Under the pieces are notes generated by a model. The model was not told the DNA's origin. It searched no databases and worked only from the letters and a program-made list of their open reading frames with translations. A DNA stretch of 64,000 nt from Candidatus Saccharimonadales bacterium (GTDB taxonomy: Bacteria > Patescibacteriota > Saccharimonadia > Saccharimonadales > 2-12-FULL-41-12), in the NCBI GenBank assembly GCA_041906505.1, contig JAYRJB010000008.1, positions 136,053 to 200,052 of the forward strand, written 5' to 3'. Shown in pieces: positions 23,073-38,642 of the stretch. Numbering within the stretch: position 1 is the stretch's first letter; every line of letters starts with the position of its first letter. The position numbers and the translations under genes are program-made.

Positions 23073-24140
23073 CTACGCTGGCTTTCGTAGTAGAACTTTT
23101 GGCGTGCCGTCAGTAAGCCCCATTAGGGTAGCGGCGTCAAGTGCAGTTTTTGCGTGCGAGAAGTGCGAGCGCATACGCGGATCATCTGAAACCTCTTCTG
23201 CAAGCAATTTGGTTGCCCATATATCGACACTGAACGCCTGTAGCTTGTCACCAGTCGCATAAACCAGTAAATCCCTATGCAGGGTTGTGCCCGATACATA
23301 ATTTAATAGAGCAACAAGTTCTCGATGCTCGTTTCCAAGAGTCTCAATGGCACCAGGATTATCGCCCTTCACAACTTCAAGTGCTTTGTGTCTGTTTCCC
23401 GTATAGGCACCCTTTGTTTCGTTTAGAACTCGAGCGTTCTGTATCACTTCCTGCATCACATCTTCGGAGTAGTCGTCTTGCAGTATGGCTTTTGTCAGTT
23501 CAATGACACCTTGCACATACGGCTCTTTAAATCGCTCAAGCTGCATATCTAAACTATCGATTGCCCCACAGCCAGTTTTGTTATTTTCAAGCCGAGCATT
23601 TTTGTAGTCAGTGTGTGCTCCAGGTCCAAACCCAGCCGAAATAGACAGCTGATTTGCTCGACGCACATCATGCAATATCGTCGTGCCTTCCTCTTTGAGT
23701 TCTTGAATTCCGCCGAGCGCTAGTCGCAAGGCTGCGGCAACACCAGGAGTTCCACCTGCAAGTTGTGGCCCCAAAGGCCGAAAGAGCATTTCAATTTCAT
23801 CATCCGATCCAACCAACGCCCTCCCGTCAACACAGCGAATGGGTGCCCCTAGCGTCGTATTTACGTAAAGACCCGGCAAAGTATTTAGCTTAAAATCTCG
23901 AAGCTCTGCACTAGAGAACTCACCACTCTGCACTCTTTTGTCGCGGGAAATATTTCCCATCCAAATTGCATGTGGTGCTAGAGCCGAAAGTGGTGCAACT
24001 ATAGAAACCACTCCTTGCTCTCTCGATTTTTCCTGCAGCTCACGAATAGCGACCTCAACATAGCTCTCATCAATCTCTTGGGGGATAAGAGTGTCCTGTT
24101 GAGTGGTATTACTTGGCATAGGGTATTTTTCTCCGTACAT
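23073..24140 (-). CDS. conserved-looking hypothetical protein with C-x-D-x-R ... H ... C-G-A motif set
   Basis: 355-aa soluble ORF. Contains RCVDGR (C103/D105/R107), GAHTD (H176) and GCGAID (C191). No family recognised with confidence. Confidence 0.5.
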   Translation of the reverse strand: MYGEKYPMPSNTTQQDTLIPQEIDESYVEVAIRELQEKSREQGVVSIVAPLSALAPHAIWMGNISRDKRVQSGEFSSAELRDFKLNTLPGLYVNTTLGAPIRCVDGRALVGSDDEIEMLFRPLGPQLAGGTPGVAAALRLALGGIQELKEEGTTILHDVRRANQLSISAGFGPGAHTDYKNARLENNKTGCGAIDSLDMQLERFKEPYVQGVIELTKAILQDDYSEDVMQEVIQNARVLNETKGAYTGNRHKALEVVKGDNPGAIETLGNEHRELVALLNYVSGTTLHRDLLVYATGDKLQAFSVDIWATKLLAEEVSDDPRMRSHFSHAKTALDAATLMGLTDGTPKVLLRKPA

Positions 24141-24338: not shown

Positions 24339-24770
24339 CTAATATCGATTCTTCTTGCTTCGCTTCTTGATGGTGGCAAGCTTGAGGCGGACTGCTTGGC
24401 GATCCATAACAGCTTGGGCTTCAGAAAGGGAAACCGCGTCTTTGGCGTTATCAATAAGCTTTCGAGCTCTGTCATATGCAGCTTGAGCTTCCATTTCGCT
24501 CACATCGCCTGGCTGATCAACGTCGTCTACCAAAACATGAACAGTATTGTCCAGCACTTCAACAGTACCCTCATAGACACCGTACTCTGCACGATTATCA
24601 TCCTTGTCGCCTCTATTTTGTCGGACACTCATAATCCCTGGAGCGACAGACCCGAGCAGGGGAGCATGCCCGTCATTAATTGCTATATCGCCAGCAATTG
24701 TTGGCACAATAACTTCGTACACGTCTTGGTTTACAAGCTGACCAGATAGGGTAATAAAATTGAGGTGCAT
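24339..24770 (-). CDS. atpC: F0F1 ATP synthase subunit epsilon
   Basis: Last gene of the atp operon. N-terminal beta-sandwich pattern (VPTIAGDIAINDGHAPLL) and a C-terminal helical hairpin. Confidence 0.85.
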   Translation of the reverse strand: MHLNFITLSGQLVNQDVYEVIVPTIAGDIAINDGHAPLLGSVAPGIMSVRQNRGDKDDNRAEYGVYEGTVEVLDNTVHVLVDDVDQPGDVSEMEAQAAYDRARKLIDNAKDAVSLSEAQAVMDRQAVRLKLATIKKRSKKNRY

Positions 24771-24776
24771 AAAAGC

Positions 24777-26177
<1,401 letters not shown>

Positions 26178-26197
26178 TTATTTTCCAGATAAATTAT

Positions 26198-26665
26198 TCA
26201 AGCTGCAAGTGCGTGTGCCCTCATGTACACAAGTGGCTCATCAACACGAAATAGCTCCCGCGAACTAAGTCCATACACGTCTTGCATGCTCATGGCTCCA
26301 AGGTCACGAAAAAGATTTTCTTCCGAAGCATCTCGAAAATGGTATGATTCGGCGTCTCTTGGCATGATCACGCTTCGGTAAGCCTCTTTGCGGTCTTGTC
26401 TCAGCCCTAAAACAGTTTGGGCAATTTGCACTGTCTGCCTGGCAACATGCTTGGCCGTCGGCTTTTGCGGTCTGTCGACAAGCAAAATTGCGGGGTTATC
26501 CAATGCTTCGAGCCGTGCACGGTACTCGTTTTCGTTATTGCTAAAATGTACAATGCTTATTCTCGATGGGCCACTTGAGTAGCTGCTTAGTGCAACAAAG
26601 GCCTGTACAGCAAACTCAAAGCTACTTTCGGTGGGAGCAATGGTTAGGTTTTCGTGCTGTATCAT
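26198..26665 (-). CDS. hypothetical 155-aa soluble protein encoded inside the atp operon (between atpG and atpD)
   Basis: Its ATG overlaps the atpG stop codon (ATGA, 26662-26665) and it ends 35 nt before atpD. No TM and no recognisable motif. Confidence 0.6.
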   Translation of the reverse strand: MIQHENLTIAPTESSFEFAVQAFVALSSYSSGPSRISIVHFSNNENEYRARLEALDNPAILLVDRPQKPTAKHVARQTVQIAQTVLGLRQDRKEAYRSVIMPRDAESYHFRDASEENLFRDLGAMSMQDVYGLSSRELFRVDEPLVYMRAHALAA

Positions 26666-27531
26666 GACTTTACCGCCTCCGCACCACCGACAATTTCAGC
26701 AATTTCTTGCGTGATGGCCGCTTGGCGGGCCGTATTGAATTCGAGCGTTAAGTCGTCAATAATATCGCCGGCATTGTCGGTCGCATTCTTCATGGCCAGC
26801 ATTCGCATAGAGTGCTCACTCGCAAGACTTTCCAGTATAGCTTGCCAAATCTGCACCTCGATAAGCCGAGAGACTGTACTCTCAACAATATCCTCAATTG
26901 ATGGCTCGAAGATCGCCACCTCAAGTTTTGACACTTCATTTTCGCCATCCAGTTTGGTTGGAAGAATGTCAGTTTTTTGGACTTGTTGAGTCAAATTTGA
27001 TACAAAACTTGTATAGATGATAGATACCGAGTCAACTTTCTTATCAACGTAGTATTCGAGAATGCTCCTCACAATTGGCCGAACCTCCGAACCATGTGGC
27101 TGCCCAGAAAACATAGAATAGGCTGAAAGTAGCTCCACTCCGTCAATCCGGGCGACAAACTGAGAACCAATACGGCCAATCGTAATTATTTTTGTTTGGA
27201 CTTTATTGTCCTGGTTTTGCTGCACCACACGAAGTAGCTCCTTGATAACGTTGCTGTTATAGGCTCCCGCCAAACCTCTATCGCTTGTGACAACAACAAT
27301 AAGGTGGCTCTTTATTGGTCGAGCATTAAATAATGGATGCACCGACACATCGCTCACCCCGCCCAGTCTTTTAAGAATATTGTGCGCCGCTTCCCGATAG
27401 GCCCGAGAAGAAAGGGCTTGCTCTTGCGCACGACGCATTTTACTTGCAGCAACTAGCTCCATGGCCTTGGTTATTTGCCTGGTATTTTTGACGCTATGTA
27501 TTCGTCGCTTAAGAACTGTTGTATTCGCCAT
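26662..27531 (-). CDS. atpG: F0F1 ATP synthase subunit gamma
   Basis: IKNTRQITKAMELVAASKMRRAQ N-terminus and C-terminal ARQAAITQEIAEIVGGA. Confidence 0.95.
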   Translation of the reverse strand: MANTTVLKRRIHSVKNTRQITKAMELVAASKMRRAQEQALSSRAYREAAHNILKRLGGVSDVSVHPLFNARPIKSHLIVVVTSDRGLAGAYNSNVIKELLRVVQQNQDNKVQTKIITIGRIGSQFVARIDGVELLSAYSMFSGQPHGSEVRPIVRSILEYYVDKKVDSVSIIYTSFVSNLTQQVQKTDILPTKLDGENEVSKLEVAIFEPSIEDIVESTVSRLIEVQIWQAILESLASEHSMRMLAMKNATDNAGDIIDDLTLEFNTARQAAITQEIAEIVGGAEAVKS

Positions 27532-27541
27532 TAGTGTCTAC

Positions 27542-29074
27542 TTACTTCACCTCATACTCTTTTGCTATTTTCTTGCCGACGCCCAAAATTGTTTGCTTTG
27601 TTTCTTCACTCGGCTTATCTCCTTCGTTCAGTACGTCAATCAGCTTCTTATGACTTCTTCGAAGCTCAGTAAACAATGCCTCGCCAGCGTGACGCACCTC
27701 TTGTATTGGCACTGTGTCAAAAACTCCCTCAGTCGCGACCAGCAGCAGGGAAGTTTGCTCCCAAATTGAAAGCGGGGAATATTGCGGCTGTTTTAGCAGC
27801 TCGGTAAGTCGTTGACCTCTTTCTATTCGATGTCTGGTGTCTGCATCAAGATCGGTCGAAAATTGCGCAAAGGCAGCGAGTTCTCGGAACTGAGCCAGAT
27901 TTATTCGAAGCGAACCAGCCACGCTCTTTACAGCCTTTGTTTGCGCCGATCCGCCAACCCGAGAAACACTTGTACCCACCGCAATAGCGGGGCGAATTCC
28001 TTGATAGAACAAATCCGTTTCTAAGAAAATCTGTCCATCGGTGATCGAAATAACGTTTGTAGGAATGTACGCACTAATGTCGCCAGCTTGGGTTTCGATA
28101 ATGGGCAAGGCAGTGAGGCTGCCGGCTCCAAGCCGGTCAGATAATTTTGCAGCCCTCTCAAGCAAGCGGGAGTGAAGATAAAACACATCACCAGGAAAAG
28201 CCTCACGACCTGGCGGGCGCCGCAGCAACAAACTCATCTGTCTATACGCGTTCGCGTGCTTCGATAGATCGTCGTGAATTATTAAGGCGTGTTGTTTATT
28301 GTCTCGAAAGTATTCACCCATCGCAGTCCCGGCGTAAGGTGCAAGATATTGCAAAGAGGCGGGATCGGCTGCCGAGGTGGCAATGACGATAGTCTGCTCC
28401 ATTACACCCTCGCGGCGAAGACGTTCAACCAGACGCGCAACCTTACTCGCTTTCTGGCCGACAGCAACGTAAATATTGATGACCCCAGTTTTTTGGCGGT
28501 GCTGATTAATCATAGTGTCCAGAGCCACGGCGGTCTTACCAGTTTGTCGATCACCAATAATGAGCTCACGCTGTCCACGCCCAATGGGAACCATGGTGTC
28601 AATTGCGGCGATACCGGTCATGAGCGGCTCATGAACGCTTTTTCTATCAAGCACACCGGGAGCAGTCTGTTCAATAGCGCCTGTGTTCTTTGCTTTAATT
28701 GGCCCTTTGTCGTCAAGGGGATTTCCGAGTGGATCAACAACTCTGCCAAGCAACTCAGTCCCAACAGGCACTTCCAAACTTCTGCCAGTGAGTTTTACTT
28801 TCGCTCCAGCCCGAACGGGCACATCATTACCAAGCAAAACTGCGCCAATTTCGTTTTCGCTCAGATTAAGTGCGAACGCAGCAATGGTCTGTCCCTCGGT
28901 CCCTTCGATCTCAAGAACTTCGTTAAAGCCACACTCTCTGAGTCCATAAATCCACGCAACTCCATCGCCAACTCGAGTAACAACCCCCACATTGCTTATC
29001 TCGGGCTGATCTTTTAGCTCTTGGATCGCTTTACGAATGTCCTCGGATAGTACTTTGATGCTAACTTCGCTCAT
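27542..29074 (-). CDS. atpA: F0F1 ATP synthase subunit alpha
   Basis: Walker A GDRQTGKT and typical alpha-subunit blocks ([33 protein letters not shown]). Confidence 0.97.
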
Positions 29075-29100: not shown

Positions 29101-29511
29101 TTAGGTAATTGCTTCTTTTAGCTGATTTAACTTGGTCTTAATTGTCAGATCGAGGTTTGCGTTCGCCAACGACAAGGTCGCACCACCAATCACACTCGCG
29201 TCAATCACTTCGTGAATAATAACTTTGCGTGCATTCGGGTACTGCTTTTTAGCAACCAGTTTGATGTGTGCCTTTTCGTCTGCAGTAAGAGGGAATGCAC
29301 TTTTTGCCGTAAGCTCCACTATACCTTCTTGTGCCCGCAATTCCATAACATCTCTGAGCAGGGAATCAAGGTTTGCGGTCTTTCCTTCGTCAATTAAGTA
29401 GGCCGCCACACCAATTGCGAGATCCTGCTCATCGAATTTCTCAGCCAATTGATTGGCAATATGTCGCGCGGTTGCAGTTTGTGAGTACTTATCATTCACA
29501 ACAGCGATCAC
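29101..29511 (-). CDS. atpH: F0F1 ATP synthase subunit delta (OSCP), unusually short (136 aa)
   Basis: C-terminal OSCP signature [29 protein letters not shown]. Operon position is between atpF and atpA, with a 4-nt overlap with atpF. Confidence 0.8.
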
Positions 29512-30047
29512 ACCTGTCCCTTGAGTGCACTCTCTAGTAGTTTTGCATCCTTTTTCGCGTCAAGCTTCTCGCCGGCAACCACTTCGGTTGCCTCAATTAC
29601 AAGATCAACAACCTCGGCCTCGAGTTTGCGTCTGGCACGAGCGGACTCTTCTGTGATGCGCTTTTTCGCATCTTTCATCATGCCATCAACCTTGGCTTGT
29701 GCCCTATCCTCAGCCTCTTTAATGATCACGCCTGCTCGTTCGTGGGTTAACGCAAGTACTTCGTCGGCCTCTTTTCTGGCATTTTTTCGTGCTTCTGTCA
29801 CTTCTTGCTCCAGCTTATCGCGCTCGGCTTGCATTTGCGTGGTAAGCCTTAGGCCCTCATCGATGGCATCTCGCCGCGCTTCAAGCATCGTTACAATCCT
29901 ACGAAACACGAACTTGTAAAGAATATAAAACACAAACAAAAACGTTATGAGCTGAATTATGAACGCCCCGGGGTCAAACCCAAGAGCAGCAAAACCCTCC
30001 TTGTCAGCAGTCTCGCTCGCAAATTGTCCAATAAATGTATGTATCAT
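29508..30047 (-). CDS. atpF: F0F1 ATP synthase subunit b
   Basis: Single N-terminal TM followed by a long charged coiled coil. Operon position fits. Confidence 0.85.
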   Translation of the reverse strand: MIHTFIGQFASETADKEGFAALGFDPGAFIIQLITFLFVFYILYKFVFRRIVTMLEARRDAIDEGLRLTTQMQAERDKLEQEVTEARKNARKEADEVLALTHERAGVIIKEAEDRAQAKVDGMMKDAKKRITEESARARRKLEAEVVDLVIEATEVVAGEKLDAKKDAKLLESALKGQV

Positions 30048-30103
30048 TGTCTCTTTTTCAAACTAATTCTTCAAAAATGTTCGTCTAATCCTTATTAAAC
30101 AAC

Positions 30104-30334
30104 TTACTTAACAATAAAGAATGCGCCAATCGCAACAATTCCAAAGAACTCAGCCATACCAACAAATATGAACAGGGTGCTCAAAAATTTTGCTGACTCT
30201 GGATTTCGGCTTACGGCACTCATGTATGCCGATCCCATTAAACCAAGGGCGATTGCCGGTCCAAGACCACCAAATCCAATGATGATGCCTTTTGCAATCA
30301 CTGCCGTATTAACTGCTTCTGCTAGTAGTTCCAT
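30104..30334 (-). CDS. atpE: F0F1 ATP synthase subunit c
   Basis: 76-aa two-helix hairpin with a Gly-rich helix 1 (GFGGLGPAIALG), polar loop SRNPE and carboxylate in GMAEFFG. Confidence 0.9.
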   Translation of the reverse strand: MELLAEAVNTAVIAKGIIIGFGGLGPAIALGLMGSAYMSAVSRNPESAKFLSTLFIFVGMAEFFGIVAIGAFFIVK

Positions 30335-30379
30335 AGTACTCCTTTTTAGTTGTTAGAACTTCTTAATTACCATTATAGC

Positions 30380-31162
30380 CTACGCGTGCTCCTCTTTGCC
30401 GTGCCCCGCAAGCGTTGCCGAAAGGTAAGCCGCACACAAAACAACAAAGATATAGGCCTGTAGGGCACCAACAAAGATCTCGAGCAACGTAAAAGGAAGG
30501 GCCGCAATCGGAGCCGCAAAAGTTCCTCCCAAATATGCTGCCACTGAAATCAGAATTTCACCAATCGCCACATTGAGAAAAAGTCGAAGCCCCAGACTCA
30601 ACAAACGCGTAAATTCTGTGAATATCTCGAAAGCGCCGATTAGGTAGGTGAGGGGATTCGTTGGTTTGAGTGGAAAATAATGCTTTAGGTGCGCCCTGGG
30701 ACCTTGCTCTTTTATGGCAATGATCTGCACCAGAACCATACCAAATACTGCCATTGCGACAGTACCATTTAAGTCTGCAGTGAACGGACGAAGCAGAGGG
30801 CTACCGTTGTACTCTATAGCCGGTCCCACTCCTGGCAATAACCCAAGCCAGTTGTTAAGCATAATAAAGAAAAACATCGTGGCAAAGATTGGCGCGAGTC
30901 GAACTGCAAGCCGTCGACTTCCAAGCGTTCCCTGCAAAAGATTCACAATAAACTCACTGCCAACCTCTAGCAAAGCGCCAATTCCTCTCGAACCTGTAAT
31001 CTTAACTCGTTTCATGGCAAGAACGAACATAATAATCAGCACAGTAGCCACTAGCCAACCGTACAGCATCGAATTGGTGATTGCAGCGCCTCCAATCTCA
31101 AACAGCTTTTCGGGCGCTATCGCAATGTGTGGACCCTCCTCAGCAGCAAATAGCGTCATCAT
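30380..31162 (-). CDS. atpB: F0F1 ATP synthase subunit a
   Basis: Polytopic membrane protein with the conserved LSLGLRLFLNVAIGE (essential Arg) region. Confidence 0.9.
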   Translation of the reverse strand: MMTLFAAEEGPHIAIAPEKLFEIGGAAITNSMLYGWLVATVLIIMFVLAMKRVKITGSRGIGALLEVGSEFIVNLLQGTLGSRRLAVRLAPIFATMFFFIMLNNWLGLLPGVGPAIEYNGSPLLRPFTADLNGTVAMAVFGMVLVQIIAIKEQGPRAHLKHYFPLKPTNPLTYLIGAFEIFTEFTRLLSLGLRLFLNVAIGEILISVAAYLGGTFAAPIAALPFTLLEIFVGALQAYIFVVLCAAYLSATLAGHGKEEHA

Positions 31163-31425
31163 TGTTTTTCATTCACTCCTATCTTTTTCACAATATTTCG
31201 TATTACCAATACGCCGAATATCATCCCCAAAAAGAACCCCGCGGTTGAAAATGCCTGGCCGCTGCCTCTGATTTTTGAGTCGATAAGCATGCCCACAAAT
31301 AGCGGCGAGAGCATTGCGCCAGATAGCCTCCAGGTAAGATCAAACAGACCTACAAAAAATGCACGCCTGGCGCGGCGTGTTAATTGTTGATCACTCGTCG
31401 ATATATCGGCGGGTTTTGTCGTCAT
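31159..31425 (-). CDS. AtpZ/AtpI-like small membrane protein at head of atp operon
   Basis: 88 aa, two TM helices, 4-nt overlap with atpB. Position is typical of atpI/atpZ. Confidence 0.55.
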   Translation of the reverse strand: MTTKPADISTSDQQLTRRARRAFFVGLFDLTWRLSGAMLSPLFVGMLIDSKIRGSGQAFSTAGFFLGMIFGVLVIRNIVKKIGVNEKQ

Positions 31426-37436: not shown

Positions 37437-37499
37437 AGTGATATCTATTATAGCACATATTGTAATTTTTAGCAATATCCTCCATACTTGATAACTGTT

Positions 37500-37955
37500 A
37501 TGCCAAAGAAACCGGCGCGAACCACCACACGAATCCAAAACAAGCGAGCCATGTTTGACTACGAACTTAGTGACGACTATATGGCTGGTTTGGTTTTAAC
37601 TGGGGCAGAAACAAAGGCGCTACGTCTTGGACATGGCCACCTAAAAGGTGCCTATGTAACCGTTAAAGGCGATGAACTTTACCTTCTTAATGCCACAATT
37701 ACTGGATTCAGCGGCGTAAAACTTACCGAATCAGAGCAGACTAGAAGCCGAAAGCTTCTACTAAAAAAGAGAGAGATCAAAACTTTACTTGAAGCCAAAA
37801 AACAAGGTAAATCAATCATACCGACCGAGCTTCTTACCAATGGGCGCTACATAAAGCTTCGCATAGGCGTAGGAGTAGGCCGAAAGCAGCACGATAAACG
37901 CCAAGTTATCAAAAAACGCGACACCAACCGCGACATTGCCCGCACATTGCGGTAG
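37500..37955 (+). CDS. smpB: SsrA-binding protein SmpB
   Basis: IQNKRAMFDYEL...GLVLTGAETKALR...AYV and a basic C-terminal tail. ATG at 37500 (the track start 37488 is TTG). Confidence 0.9.
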   Translation: MPKKPARTTTRIQNKRAMFDYELSDDYMAGLVLTGAETKALRLGHGHLKGAYVTVKGDELYLLNATITGFSGVKLTESEQTRSRKLLLKKREIKTLLEAKKQGKSIIPTELLTNGRYIKLRIGVGVGRKQHDKRQVIKKRDTNRDIARTLR

Positions 37956-37963
37956 ATCACGTA

Positions 37964-38308
37964 TTGTTCTACCGTAAGAGTATGGCAGACAAACGAAAGT
38001 ATAGTGATCGTAGAGAATATTTGATTCGAGCAGTGTCTAAGCGCAGGCGCAATCTCAAAATAAAAGCGGTCAAGCTACTAGGAGGTGTATGTGTACTGTG
38101 CGGATATGATAAGCATTCCGGCGTACTCGATTTTCACCACATAGACCCAAAGCTTAAGTCGTTCGGTCTCGGTAGCGGGGGATTCTCAAGGTCATGGAAG
38201 TCTATAGAAGCAGAATCAAAAAAGTGCGTCCTAGTATGCGCAAATTGTCACCGCGAGATCGAACTTGGACTAACAACTGAGGATTTAACCCAATATTTAC
38301 ATCCCTAG
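37964..38308 (+). CDS. HNH endonuclease domain protein
   Basis: CVLCGY...LDFHHIDP...KCVLVCANCHREIE gives two Cys pairs plus HNH His/Asn-type residues. Confidence 0.7.
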   Translation: MFYRKSMADKRKYSDRREYLIRAVSKRRRNLKIKAVKLLGGVCVLCGYDKHSGVLDFHHIDPKLKSFGLGSGGFSRSWKSIEAESKKCVLVCANCHREIELGLTTEDLTQYLHP

Positions 38309-38339: not shown

Positions 38340-38642
38340 TCCGGGGTAGCTCAGCGGTAGAGCGGGTGGCTGTCAAAGGCAGCCTGTCTGGGCAACCAGT
38401 CAGTGAAAACAGGGTGAATTGCAGAAACCCTAAGGCAAACACGCTAAGGCAATCTGCAGCCAAGCCAAGCTAGAGGCAACGACGCTTGGAAGGTTCAGAG
38501 ACTAGAAGGTGAGACCTCAGCAATAATCCTTCAAATGAGCGCCCTGCATCCCACGCGGATGATGAAATAGTCCACGCCATTACGAAAGTATGGAGATCGT
38601 GTAACCACTAGGTCGAAGGTTCGAATCCTTTCCCCGGAGCCA
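38340..38642 (+). tRNA. tRNA-Asn (anticodon GUU) interrupted in the anticodon loop by a 228-nt group I-like intron; CCA encoded
   Basis: 5' exon 38340-38373 is TCCGGGG-TA-GCTC-AGCGGTA-GAGC-G-GGTGG-CTGT. 3' exon 38602-38642 is TAA-CCACT-AGGTC-GAAGG-TTCGAAT-CCTTT-CCCCGGA-G-CCA. Spliced product is a 75-nt cloverleaf with loop CUGUUAA. U1-A72 with G73 fits bacterial tRNA-Asn. Confidence 0.8.
38374..38601 (+). ncRNA. group I intron (IC3-like core), no ORF
   Basis: P1: exon GGCUGU (38368-38373) pairs with GCAGCC (38379-38384), with a U.G wobble at the 5' splice site. P2 hairpin is CUGG-GCAA-CCAG (38388-38399). Core GGUUCAGAGACUAGA lies at 38492-38506, with P7 GACUA (38500-38504) pairing to UAGUC (38568-38572). 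The intron ends in G38601. Confidence 0.75.

Follow-up and report, generated by a model that had tools for sequence, protein, structure and literature searches.

An orphan open reading frame in a hypervariable and probably translationally coupled slot of the Saccharibacteria atp operon, between atpG and atpD

The DNA considered here (the window) is a stretch of 64,000 nucleotides (nt) from contig JAYRJB010000008.1 of a Candidatus Saccharimonadales bacterium, and it carries an atp operon in which an open reading frame (ORF) of 155 codons, designated ORF155, lies between atpG and atpD, the genes for the gamma and beta subunits of the F1 part of the ATP synthase. On balance, and with little more than even confidence, ORF155 is read here as a lineage-specific coding orphan that occupies a hypervariable, translationally coupled atpG-atpD slot, rather than as a conserved subunit of the ATP synthase. 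The gamma-beta slot is hypervariable across the class. As judged from comparative sequence data, ORF155 is not a conserved component of the enzyme, as the nearest outgroups have nothing in the slot and about half of the other operons have unrelated ORFs there.

ORF155 appears to be a genuine protein-coding gene. A sister species possesses an intact 155-codon ORF (protein P0002), 84% identical and at the identical position, on at least 24 contigs (L001-L006). A strain variant of P0002, P0006, is encoded on the 476-kb NCBI contig L167, and the window allele was found at 100% identity in an independent sample/run (L168). Material in which the gene is present includes the sources of SRR34753051, SRR32555627 and GCA_964573095.1. 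Comparison of the window with L001 gives a synonymous divergence (dS) of 1.11 and a nonsynonymous divergence (dN) of 0.087 for ORF155, based on 60.5 synonymous and 29.5 nonsynonymous differences, and the resulting dN/dS ratio (omega) of 0.078 indicates purifying selection on the amino acid sequence. In the same comparison the ratio for gamma, alpha, beta, epsilon and b is 0.006-0.036, and dN of ORF155 is about 6 times that of gamma. The GC content of ORF155 is 48.5% compared with 45-50% for the atp genes, and its GC content at third codon positions also resembles that of its neighbors. The initial annotation described the product as soluble and free of recognizable motifs, which agrees with the results obtained: the predicted protein is mildly acidic (isoelectric point (pI) 5.9) and lacks a basic stretch, no transmembrane segment is evident in it (grand average of hydropathy -0.34), and no motif was found in Pfam, NCBIfam, PDB, PHROG or PADLOC.

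Database searches indicate that ORF155 is an orphan restricted to one genus. A word-indexed search of approximately 5.8 billion clustered proteins returned P0001 and P0002 as the sole relatives, to which P0006 was added, so that the relatives total P0001, P0002 and P0006. Carriers of ORF155 are limited to the window species and one sister species, which constitute two species-level lineages within one genus-level lineage, and the suggestion that the gene is lineage-specific is thus borne out. ORF155 had no match in the other fetched Saccharibacteria loci that have a gamma gene, and searches with blastn, tblastn and tblastx of the window and 160 related loci did not reveal a paralogue or source sequence. 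An exhaustive HMMER search of 1.84 billion representative proteins returned, beyond the ORF155 lineage, just two additional proteins, P0003 and P0004, which are long lipoprotein-like repeat proteins with many copies of EEAIxAFxALxxYxDSxxKI. These were rejected as homologues since the similarity is confined to residues 12-48 of ORF155 through the repeated EEAIxAFxALxxYxDS motif; the match, which reaches an E value of 2.8e-13 when the repeats are summed, was judged to be a spurious chance or compositional likeness to one helix-turn.

Profile and structure searches were likewise negative. In a scan of Pfam-A at E values up to 10, DUF2147 alone was returned (E 0.24) and there was no match to IF1, zeta/DUF1476, AtpI or ATPase_gene1. 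The canonical F-type ATP synthase subunit models of Pfam and NCBIfam did not match ORF155, and nothing significant was obtained from NCBIfam (best E 0.11), PDB sequences (best E 0.25) or PHROGs (best E 0.024), while PADLOC gave zero matches. AlphaFold2 models of ORF155 (from a two-sequence alignment) and P0002 (from a single sequence) are unreliable, with predicted local distance difference test (pLDDT) values of 42.6 and 56.2, respectively, and agree only in an alternating helix/strand pattern. Foldseek comparison of both models with the PDB, an approach proposed in the initial annotation, returned nothing at an E value of 0.001 or better, and template modelling scores (TM-scores) did not exceed approximately 0.4. 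That ORF155 arose by partial tandem duplication of atpG and later divergence, from the central alpha/beta domain of gamma, is scarcely credible. ORF155 does lie directly after atpG, and several F1 gamma chains are among the non-significant Foldseek matches of the second model (E 0.07-0.6), but the TM-scores with gamma are about 0.2 at probabilities of 0.10 or less and come from a model with a pLDDT of 56. Moreover, hhalign comparison with a 160-sequence gamma alignment gave a probability of 0.2% (E 0.27), and tblastn and blastn searches of the window were empty.

The junction with atpG was read directly from the sequence. Positions 26662-26665 of the plus strand are tcat, which is ATGA on the minus strand, with the ATG of ORF155 at 26665-26663 and the TGA of atpG at 26664-26662. 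This confirms that ORF155 starts in an overlap with the atpG stop codon, as had been reported in the initial annotation together with the end of ORF155 35 nt before atpD, which also proved correct. The overlap is unchanged in the sister species and appears to be a termination-reinitiation junction between atpG and ORF155. The sequence GCGGAGGCGGTAAAGTCATGA at the 3' end of atpG holds the Shine-Dalgarno-like GGAGG and encodes the conserved gamma C-terminus GGAEA. Within the spacer that precedes atpD, the purine-rich sequence AAGGAAGGAAG at 26169-26179 is the likely ribosome-binding site of atpD, and the spacer is kept in L001 and L167 except for one substitution and one inserted A. Scans of the operon strand in or beside ORF155 did not reveal promoter- or terminator-like sites, with totals at the level of shuffled sequence, and no flanking repeats were found around ORF155. 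A slippery heptamer that would point to a gamma-ORF155 frameshift fusion was not seen at the junction when the sequence was read by eye. The ATGA overlap, the GGAGG positioned 10 nt upstream and the lack of promoter- or terminator-like sites support the co-transcription and co-translation of ORF155 with its neighbors that had been predicted for it. ORF155 would thus be transcribed within the atp mRNA, and ribosomes that end gamma at the TGA would restart on the overlapping ATG with the aid of GGAGG. These ribosomes would stop short of atpD, which would initiate through its own purine-rich ribosome-binding site.

With gamma as bait, species-representative genomes and metagenomes yielded 80 Saccharibacteria loci each, and every operon junction was measured. 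The comparison set comprised about 155 other Saccharibacteria atp operons, and an insert was defined as more than 100 nt. Inserts are rare at the four upstream junctions (1-3%), occurring in 2/76 operons between a and c, 1/76 between c and b, 2/101 between b and delta, and 3/107 between delta and alpha. The frequency is 49/149 (33%) at the alpha-gamma junction, 72/141 (51%) at the gamma-beta junction and 26/110 (24%) at the beta-epsilon junction. Collapsing operons at gamma identities of at least 95% gave 47/144, 71/135 (53%) and 25/106 for these three junctions, respectively. As all three F1 junctions are free of inserts in 43 of 107 operons, ORF155 would seem to be dispensable for the core enzyme.

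The inserts appear to code on the operon strand because the median stop-free fraction is 0.97-0.99 in the sense direction versus approximately 0.5 for shuffled sequence; the antisense values are 0.53-0.64. The first ORF at the gamma-beta junction has an ATGA overlap like that of ORF155 in 42/69 cases and overlaps the gamma stop in 51/69. Slot ORFs are 46-264 amino acids (aa) in length and for the most part acidic, with a median length of 97 aa and a median pI of 4.75. Some slots hold several of them, and apart from seven PF05635 genes no Pfam families were found among them. The lengths of epsilon, gamma, beta and alpha show no association with slot occupancy. A description of recurrent, junction-specific filling of the Saccharibacteria F1 genes by coupled orphan ORFs was not found in the searchable literature.

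Several other features of the F1 junctions were observed in the survey. The ORFs in the alpha-gamma slot are small, acidic, tightly packed orphans, typically with an 8-nt overlap with the gamma start, and small acidic orphan ORFs likewise fill the beta-epsilon junction. Small acidic ORFs from the slots of L012, L013, L018, L023, L024, L033 and L067, which are not otherwise related, share a motif of approximately (V/I)G(S/R)D(I/F)FP(D/E); L024 has it in its alpha-gamma ORF as well as in its gamma-beta ORF. Relative to flanking proteins, slot ORFs are about 50-fold enriched in the pattern [ILVF]FP[DEQGPH], which is absent from ORF155. The delta subunit of the window operon had been noted as short, and this is correct: it corresponds to positions 44-171 of the 172-position OSCP profile and is missing the start of the N-terminal domain. 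A connection between ORF155 and the short delta was rejected since delta is short in Saccharibacteria generally, with a median length of 133 aa in 107 operons.

The occupants of the slot turn over rapidly. An all-against-all phmmer comparison sorted 153 slot ORFs into 16 small families and 112 singletons, and ORF155 is related to none of them. Among genome pairs with both gamma-beta slots filled, a homologous ORF is shared by 2 of 7 pairs at gamma identities of 85-95% and by 3 of 55 pairs at 75-85%. One operon in which all junctions are empty (L030) and another with inserts of 361 nt and 809 nt (L039) have gamma proteins that are 86.5% identical. In pairwise DNA alignments, homology stops at the atpG stop codon and restarts at the atpD ribosome-binding site, and the insert DNA is unalignable while the flanks are approximately 80-85% identical. 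Where it could be estimated, omega for orthologous slot ORFs is approximately 0.2-0.47. A profile of the slot family shared by L039, L042 and L055 found just four proteins among the 5.8 billion; ORF155 has a beta-alpha-beta pattern in common with this family, but homology between the two was rejected on the basis of an hhalign probability of 0.06%. The nearest relatives outside the genus (L087, L008, L009, L007, L088 and L010), in which gamma is 61-65% identical, have atpG-atpD gaps of 18-87 nt and no ORF. The comparison of atp operon synteny advocated in the initial annotation therefore indicates that ORF155 is not conserved across Saccharibacteria. Absence from close relatives with otherwise identical operons, which the initial annotation had named as an outcome that would count against its proposal, was found outside the genus and not in the sister species, where the ORF is retained.

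It is possible, though unlikely, that most or all slot ORFs including ORF155 represent one ancient, fast-evolving Saccharibacteria slot protein that has been repeatedly lost. The common position, ATGA coupling and similar acidic composition of slot ORFs across the class are consistent with this idea, as is the pair L076 and L144, in which gamma is 93% identical and the slot ORFs are 37% and 39% identical. Given that dN for ORF155 is several times that of gamma, similarity evolving at such a rate would be erased by the divergence of the nearest outgroup. Common ancestry is difficult to reconcile, however, with lengths from 4 to 264 codons, with the presence of several ORFs in some slots, with emptiness of the slot in the nearest outgroups, with insert DNA that cannot be aligned between well-conserved flanks or with the hhalign result described above. 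Furthermore, the sister genomes L093 and L096 (gamma 88.5% identical) carry different slot families, each of which is common to more distant genomes.

The gamma stop codon has properties that distinguish it from the ends of most other atp genes. Of 154 Saccharibacteria operons, 44% have a gamma gene that terminates in ATGA, compared with 0-16% for a, c, delta, alpha, beta and epsilon, and 29% for b, which usually overlaps delta. Owing to the conserved gamma C-terminus ..GGAEA(I/M/L)K, GGAGG is found 4-21 nt ahead of the stop codon in 55% of operons (0-8% for other atp genes), and an ATG at the gamma stop therefore has a ready-made ribosome-binding site. This built-in combination of GGAGG and ATGA explains the preference of inserts for the gamma-beta junction. 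Even among gamma-beta junctions scored as empty, 18/69 carry a mini-ORF of 4-26 codons which starts in ATGA or directly behind the gamma stop and terminates at the atpD ATG or beside it (e.g. MNELEGEV in L030). An ORF coupled to the gamma stop is present in 95 of 135 operons, with lengths of 4 to 264 codons and no gap in the distribution: 4-10 codons in 16 operons, 11-20 in 10, 21-40 in 5, 41-60 in 11, 61-100 in 26, 101-150 in 14, 151-200 in 8 and over 200 in 5. This continuum is compatible with the gradual growth of translated spacers into proteins, plus capture and replacement.

It is very unlikely that translation of ORF155 is all that matters, with the ORF serving as a ribosome relay across inserted mRNA that averts polarity or decay before atpD and with a product that is irrelevant. 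The mini-ORFs that stretch precisely between gamma stop and beta start in otherwise empty junctions would suit such a relay, as would the openness of nearly all inserts in the sense direction and the very fast evolution of many slot ORFs. For ORF155, however, the low dN/dS with saturated synonymous sites argues for selection on its amino acids, and atpD has its own strong ribosome-binding site within the spacer. Under the preferred reading of ORF155 as a lineage-specific coding orphan, ORFs would have been born or captured at the gamma stop, giving a continuum with relay mini-ORFs of 4 codons at one end and proteins of 264 codons at the other. Within it, ORF155 would be a mature example whose amino acid sequence has since come under purifying selection, and its product would be a cytoplasmic protein specific to the lineage and expressed by way of the operon.

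Alternatively, ORF155 could be a lineage-specific F1 accessory protein (a hydrolysis inhibitor, regulator or assembly chaperone) that binds alpha3beta3gamma at approximately the stoichiometry of gamma. Such a function, which is in line with the accessory, regulatory or assembly role proposed in the initial annotation, is possible but doubtful. Mitochondrial IF1, the alphaproteobacterial zeta subunit, cyanobacterial AtpTheta and the epsilon C-terminal domain are lineage-specific inhibitors or regulators of F1, and ORF155 might have a role analogous to one of these. The known F1 inhibitors of different lineages are small and unrelated to one another, and IF1, zeta and AtpTheta are soluble, occur in one lineage each and act on the highly conserved F1; ORF155 is likewise small and lineage-bound. 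Its location inside the operon with a start that overlaps the gamma stop would fit an accessory role, and so would purifying selection on ORF155 that is tighter than on its counterparts and the near confinement of inserts across the class to junctions flanking gamma or beta. Patescibacteria lack a respiratory chain and their enzyme may run in reverse (PMC11665869, PMC10633639), a situation in which control of hydrolysis could be selected. In contrast to ORF155, IF1, zeta and AtpTheta are conserved over large clades, and their genes lie elsewhere than between atpG and atpD. ORF155 has no sequence match to regulators of this type. The occurrence of ORF155 in only two species, with a slot free of ORFs in the nearest relatives, also argues against an accessory role, and the subunits with which it would interact are highly conserved (beta is approximately 80% identical across the class) while the slot ORFs are unrelated and turn over between close relatives. 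In addition, many operons are free of inserts at all of the F1 junctions, subunit lengths are independent of occupancy and PF05635 genes are among the occupants. Thus, the accessory subunit hypothesis is not backed by the comparative data, in which the slot is elsewhere either empty or filled by unrelated ORFs.

Several observations nonetheless weigh against reading ORF155 as an orphan that merely uses the operon for expression. Inserts are limited to the three junctions around gamma and beta, at 24-53% versus 1-3% upstream, which would not be predicted from purely opportunistic hitchhiking and is in keeping with a role connected to F1 or with a special mechanism that acts locally. The mechanism at the gamma stop leaves the preference for the alpha-gamma and beta-epsilon junctions over the four upstream junctions unaccounted for. 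The omega of ORF155 is lower than that of the other slot ORFs, and this tighter constraint suggests a specific role. Metagenome and genome scans yielded zero genomes between 65% and 97% gamma identity; with no outgroup closer than 65%, the restricted occurrence of ORF155 would fit gain and loss alike. Finally, the length continuum is the sole indication that ORF155 may have arisen de novo from a mini-ORF.

The PF05635 genes are exceptional among the slot occupants. They occur at all three types of F1 junction (in L033, L071, L075, L084, L085, L106 and L132), most start 26-40 nt past the upstream stop without overlap, and they look like a distinct, insertion-prone class. PF05635 is the 23S rRNA intervening sequence protein, a four-helix bundle. 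Although it fills the same types of slot as the class of ORFs to which ORF155 belongs, ORF155 has no Pfam match, and a phmmer comparison with the PF05635 slot members gave an E value of 2.5. PF05635 proteins are all-helical and approximately 110-130 aa in length, whereas ORF155 is predicted to consist of alternating helices and strands. The PF05635 slot ORFs are also basic (pI 9.2-9.6) and set apart from the upstream gene, unlike the acidic ORF155 with its ATGA overlap.

Free-standing homing endonuclease genes of T4-like phages and phage morons are patchy, exact intergenic insertions between conserved genes. Slot ORFs resemble these elements in being patchy, precise insertions that differ between close relatives, but ORF155 has no endonuclease or phage match, the host is cellular, and the slot occupants are very diverse and acidic. 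It is highly improbable that ORF155 is itself a selfish or mobile gene that targets conserved F1 genes, such as a free-standing homing endonuclease, part of a toxin-antitoxin system or phage-derived cargo. Patchy inserts between very conserved genes, the spread of PF05635 genes in other operons and clusters of single nucleotide polymorphisms (SNPs) resembling recombination in atpD and atpC of two strains could be taken as signs of mobility. Homology of ORF155 to a selfish or mobile gene, which the initial annotation had considered to be another outcome unfavorable to its proposal, was not found in Pfam, NCBIfam, PHROGs or PADLOC, and there was no match to a nuclease, toxin, phage or defense family. 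Nor does the mild acidity of ORF155, with no basic stretch, fit this possibility, and there are no flanking repeats, the composition is like that of the operon, the gene is stable in two species at a dS of about 1, and databases hold no copies in other contexts. The SNP clusters were seen in a comparison of two sister-species strains (L001 5001-11468 and L167 1-6468), with 13-16 SNPs per 250 nt in atpD and atpC, and 0-5 SNPs per 250 nt in windows spanning b to ORF155 and the cadmium carbonic anhydrase-like gene. This distribution suggests that the clusters are imported recombination tracts adjoining the slot.

The closest precedent for ORF155 is found among the operon ORFans described by Price, Arkin and Alm (2006, PMC1480536), such as flhE, btuE and b0725 in sdhCDAB-b0725-sucABCD. 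Like ORF155, these genes are restricted to close relatives, are under purifying selection and lie inside an old operon, and ORF155 has the features of an operon-embedded ORFan in having no homologues beyond close relatives and in being under purifying selection. It is common for ORFans of E. coli and B. subtilis to be inserted into native operons, whose promoter drives their expression although no function is shared, and their position misleads annotation (PMC1480536). Operon membership alone is thus no proof of shared function for ORF155, as for those genes. ORF155 differs from the ORFans in that study (PMC1480536) in being inserted amid the F1 genes with overlapping stop and start codons, and in that a slot of its type is refilled recurrently across the whole class by different ORFs, from mini-ORFs to 264 codons. 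ORF155 is new as a family, while an ORFan inside a native operon has precedent. AtpI/UncI and AtpZ are, like ORF155, small non-catalytic ORFs of atp operons, but they are widely conserved membrane proteins encoded at the start of the operon, whereas ORF155 is predicted to be soluble, internal and genus-restricted.

The features of the window operon are listed in Table 1. The order given in the initial annotation holds for the eight canonical subunits (a, c, b, delta, alpha, gamma, beta and epsilon), all of which are found without recourse to ORF155: Pfam matches of the window proteins occur in the order ATP-synt_A, ATP-synt_C, ATP-synt_B, OSCP, alpha and gamma, followed after ORF155 by beta and epsilon. 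The membrane ORF at the upstream end, which had been labeled as AtpZ-like, matches no family. The alpha-gamma and beta-epsilon junctions of the window operon are unfilled (10 nt and 6 nt, respectively).

Table 1. Coordinates of ORF155 and the surrounding atp operon in the window
Feature	Position	Strand	Description
ORF155	26198-26665	minus	155 codons, ATG start, predicted soluble orphan protein, pI 5.9
ATGA overlap, ORF155 start/atpG stop	26662-26665	minus	Direct sequence reading
GGAGG, Shine-Dalgarno-like	26676-26680	minus	atpG 3' end, 10 nt 5' of ORF155 ATG
Spacer, ORF155 stop to atpD ATG	26163-26197	minus	35 nt
atpG (F1 gamma, 289 aa)	26662-27531	minus	PF00231, 307.8 bits; upstream partner of ORF155
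atpD (F1 beta, 461 aa)	24777-26162	minus	PF00006, PF02874, PF22919; downstream partner of ORF155
atpA (F1 alpha, 510 aa)	27542-29074	minus	Pfam
atpC (epsilon, 143 aa)	24339-24770	minus	PF02823
Operon upstream half	29101-31425	minus	88-aa membrane ORF, atpB, atpE, atpF, atpH
88-aa membrane ORF	31159-31425	minus	No family assigned
atpB (a)	30380-31162	minus	ATP-synt_A (Pfam)
atpE (c)	30104-30334	minus	ATP-synt_C (Pfam)
atpF (b)	29508-30047	minus	ATP-synt_B (Pfam)
atpH (delta, 136 aa, N-terminally short)	29101-29511	minus	OSCP (Pfam)

Immediately 3' of atpC is a 355-aa ORF (23073-24140, minus strand) whose position is kept in the sister species, and which has a sub-threshold match to PF18484 (cadmium carbonic anhydrase repeat; 24.8 bits against a cut-off of 29.2). 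Elsewhere in the window, a complete group I intron (38364-38593, plus strand; Rfam, 71.8 bits) sits just 3' of two ORFs. The first of these (37488-37955, 155 aa) resembles SmpB when read by eye, and the second (37964-38308, 114 aa) has an HNH-like Cys/His motif. ARAGORN and Rfam did not identify a tRNA, rRNA or tmRNA gene as host for the intron, which may interrupt an unrecognised tmRNA gene.

In the single Saccharibacterium tested by transposon sequencing, Southlakia epibionticum, all of the ATP synthase genes were dispensable (PMC10633639). By analogy, such dispensability may relax constraint on the architecture of the operon and ease the tolerance of inserts. Position alone is no ground for labeling ORF155 and its counterparts as subunits of the ATP synthase. 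As a tentative proposal, the F1 half of the Saccharibacteria atp operon could be a gene nursery, in which the gamma C-terminus supplies a Shine-Dalgarno sequence and ATGA, any sequence that follows gamma is consequently translated, and relay mini-ORFs lengthen into fast-evolving acidic proteins. Some of these, including ORF155, would then have come under selection, and some, as products made beside F1 and along with it, might be lineage-specific modulators of an ATP synthase that operates in the absence of a respiratory chain. The series of slots is natural material for following the birth of new proteins and their fixation within an operon. As cultivated Saccharibacteria can be transformed naturally, the slot idea is experimentally testable. 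With no respiratory chain in Saccharibacteria, the function of the ATP synthase there has yet to be settled (PMC10633639, PMC11665869). Any slot proteins that do bind F1 would represent a new source of ATPase regulators.

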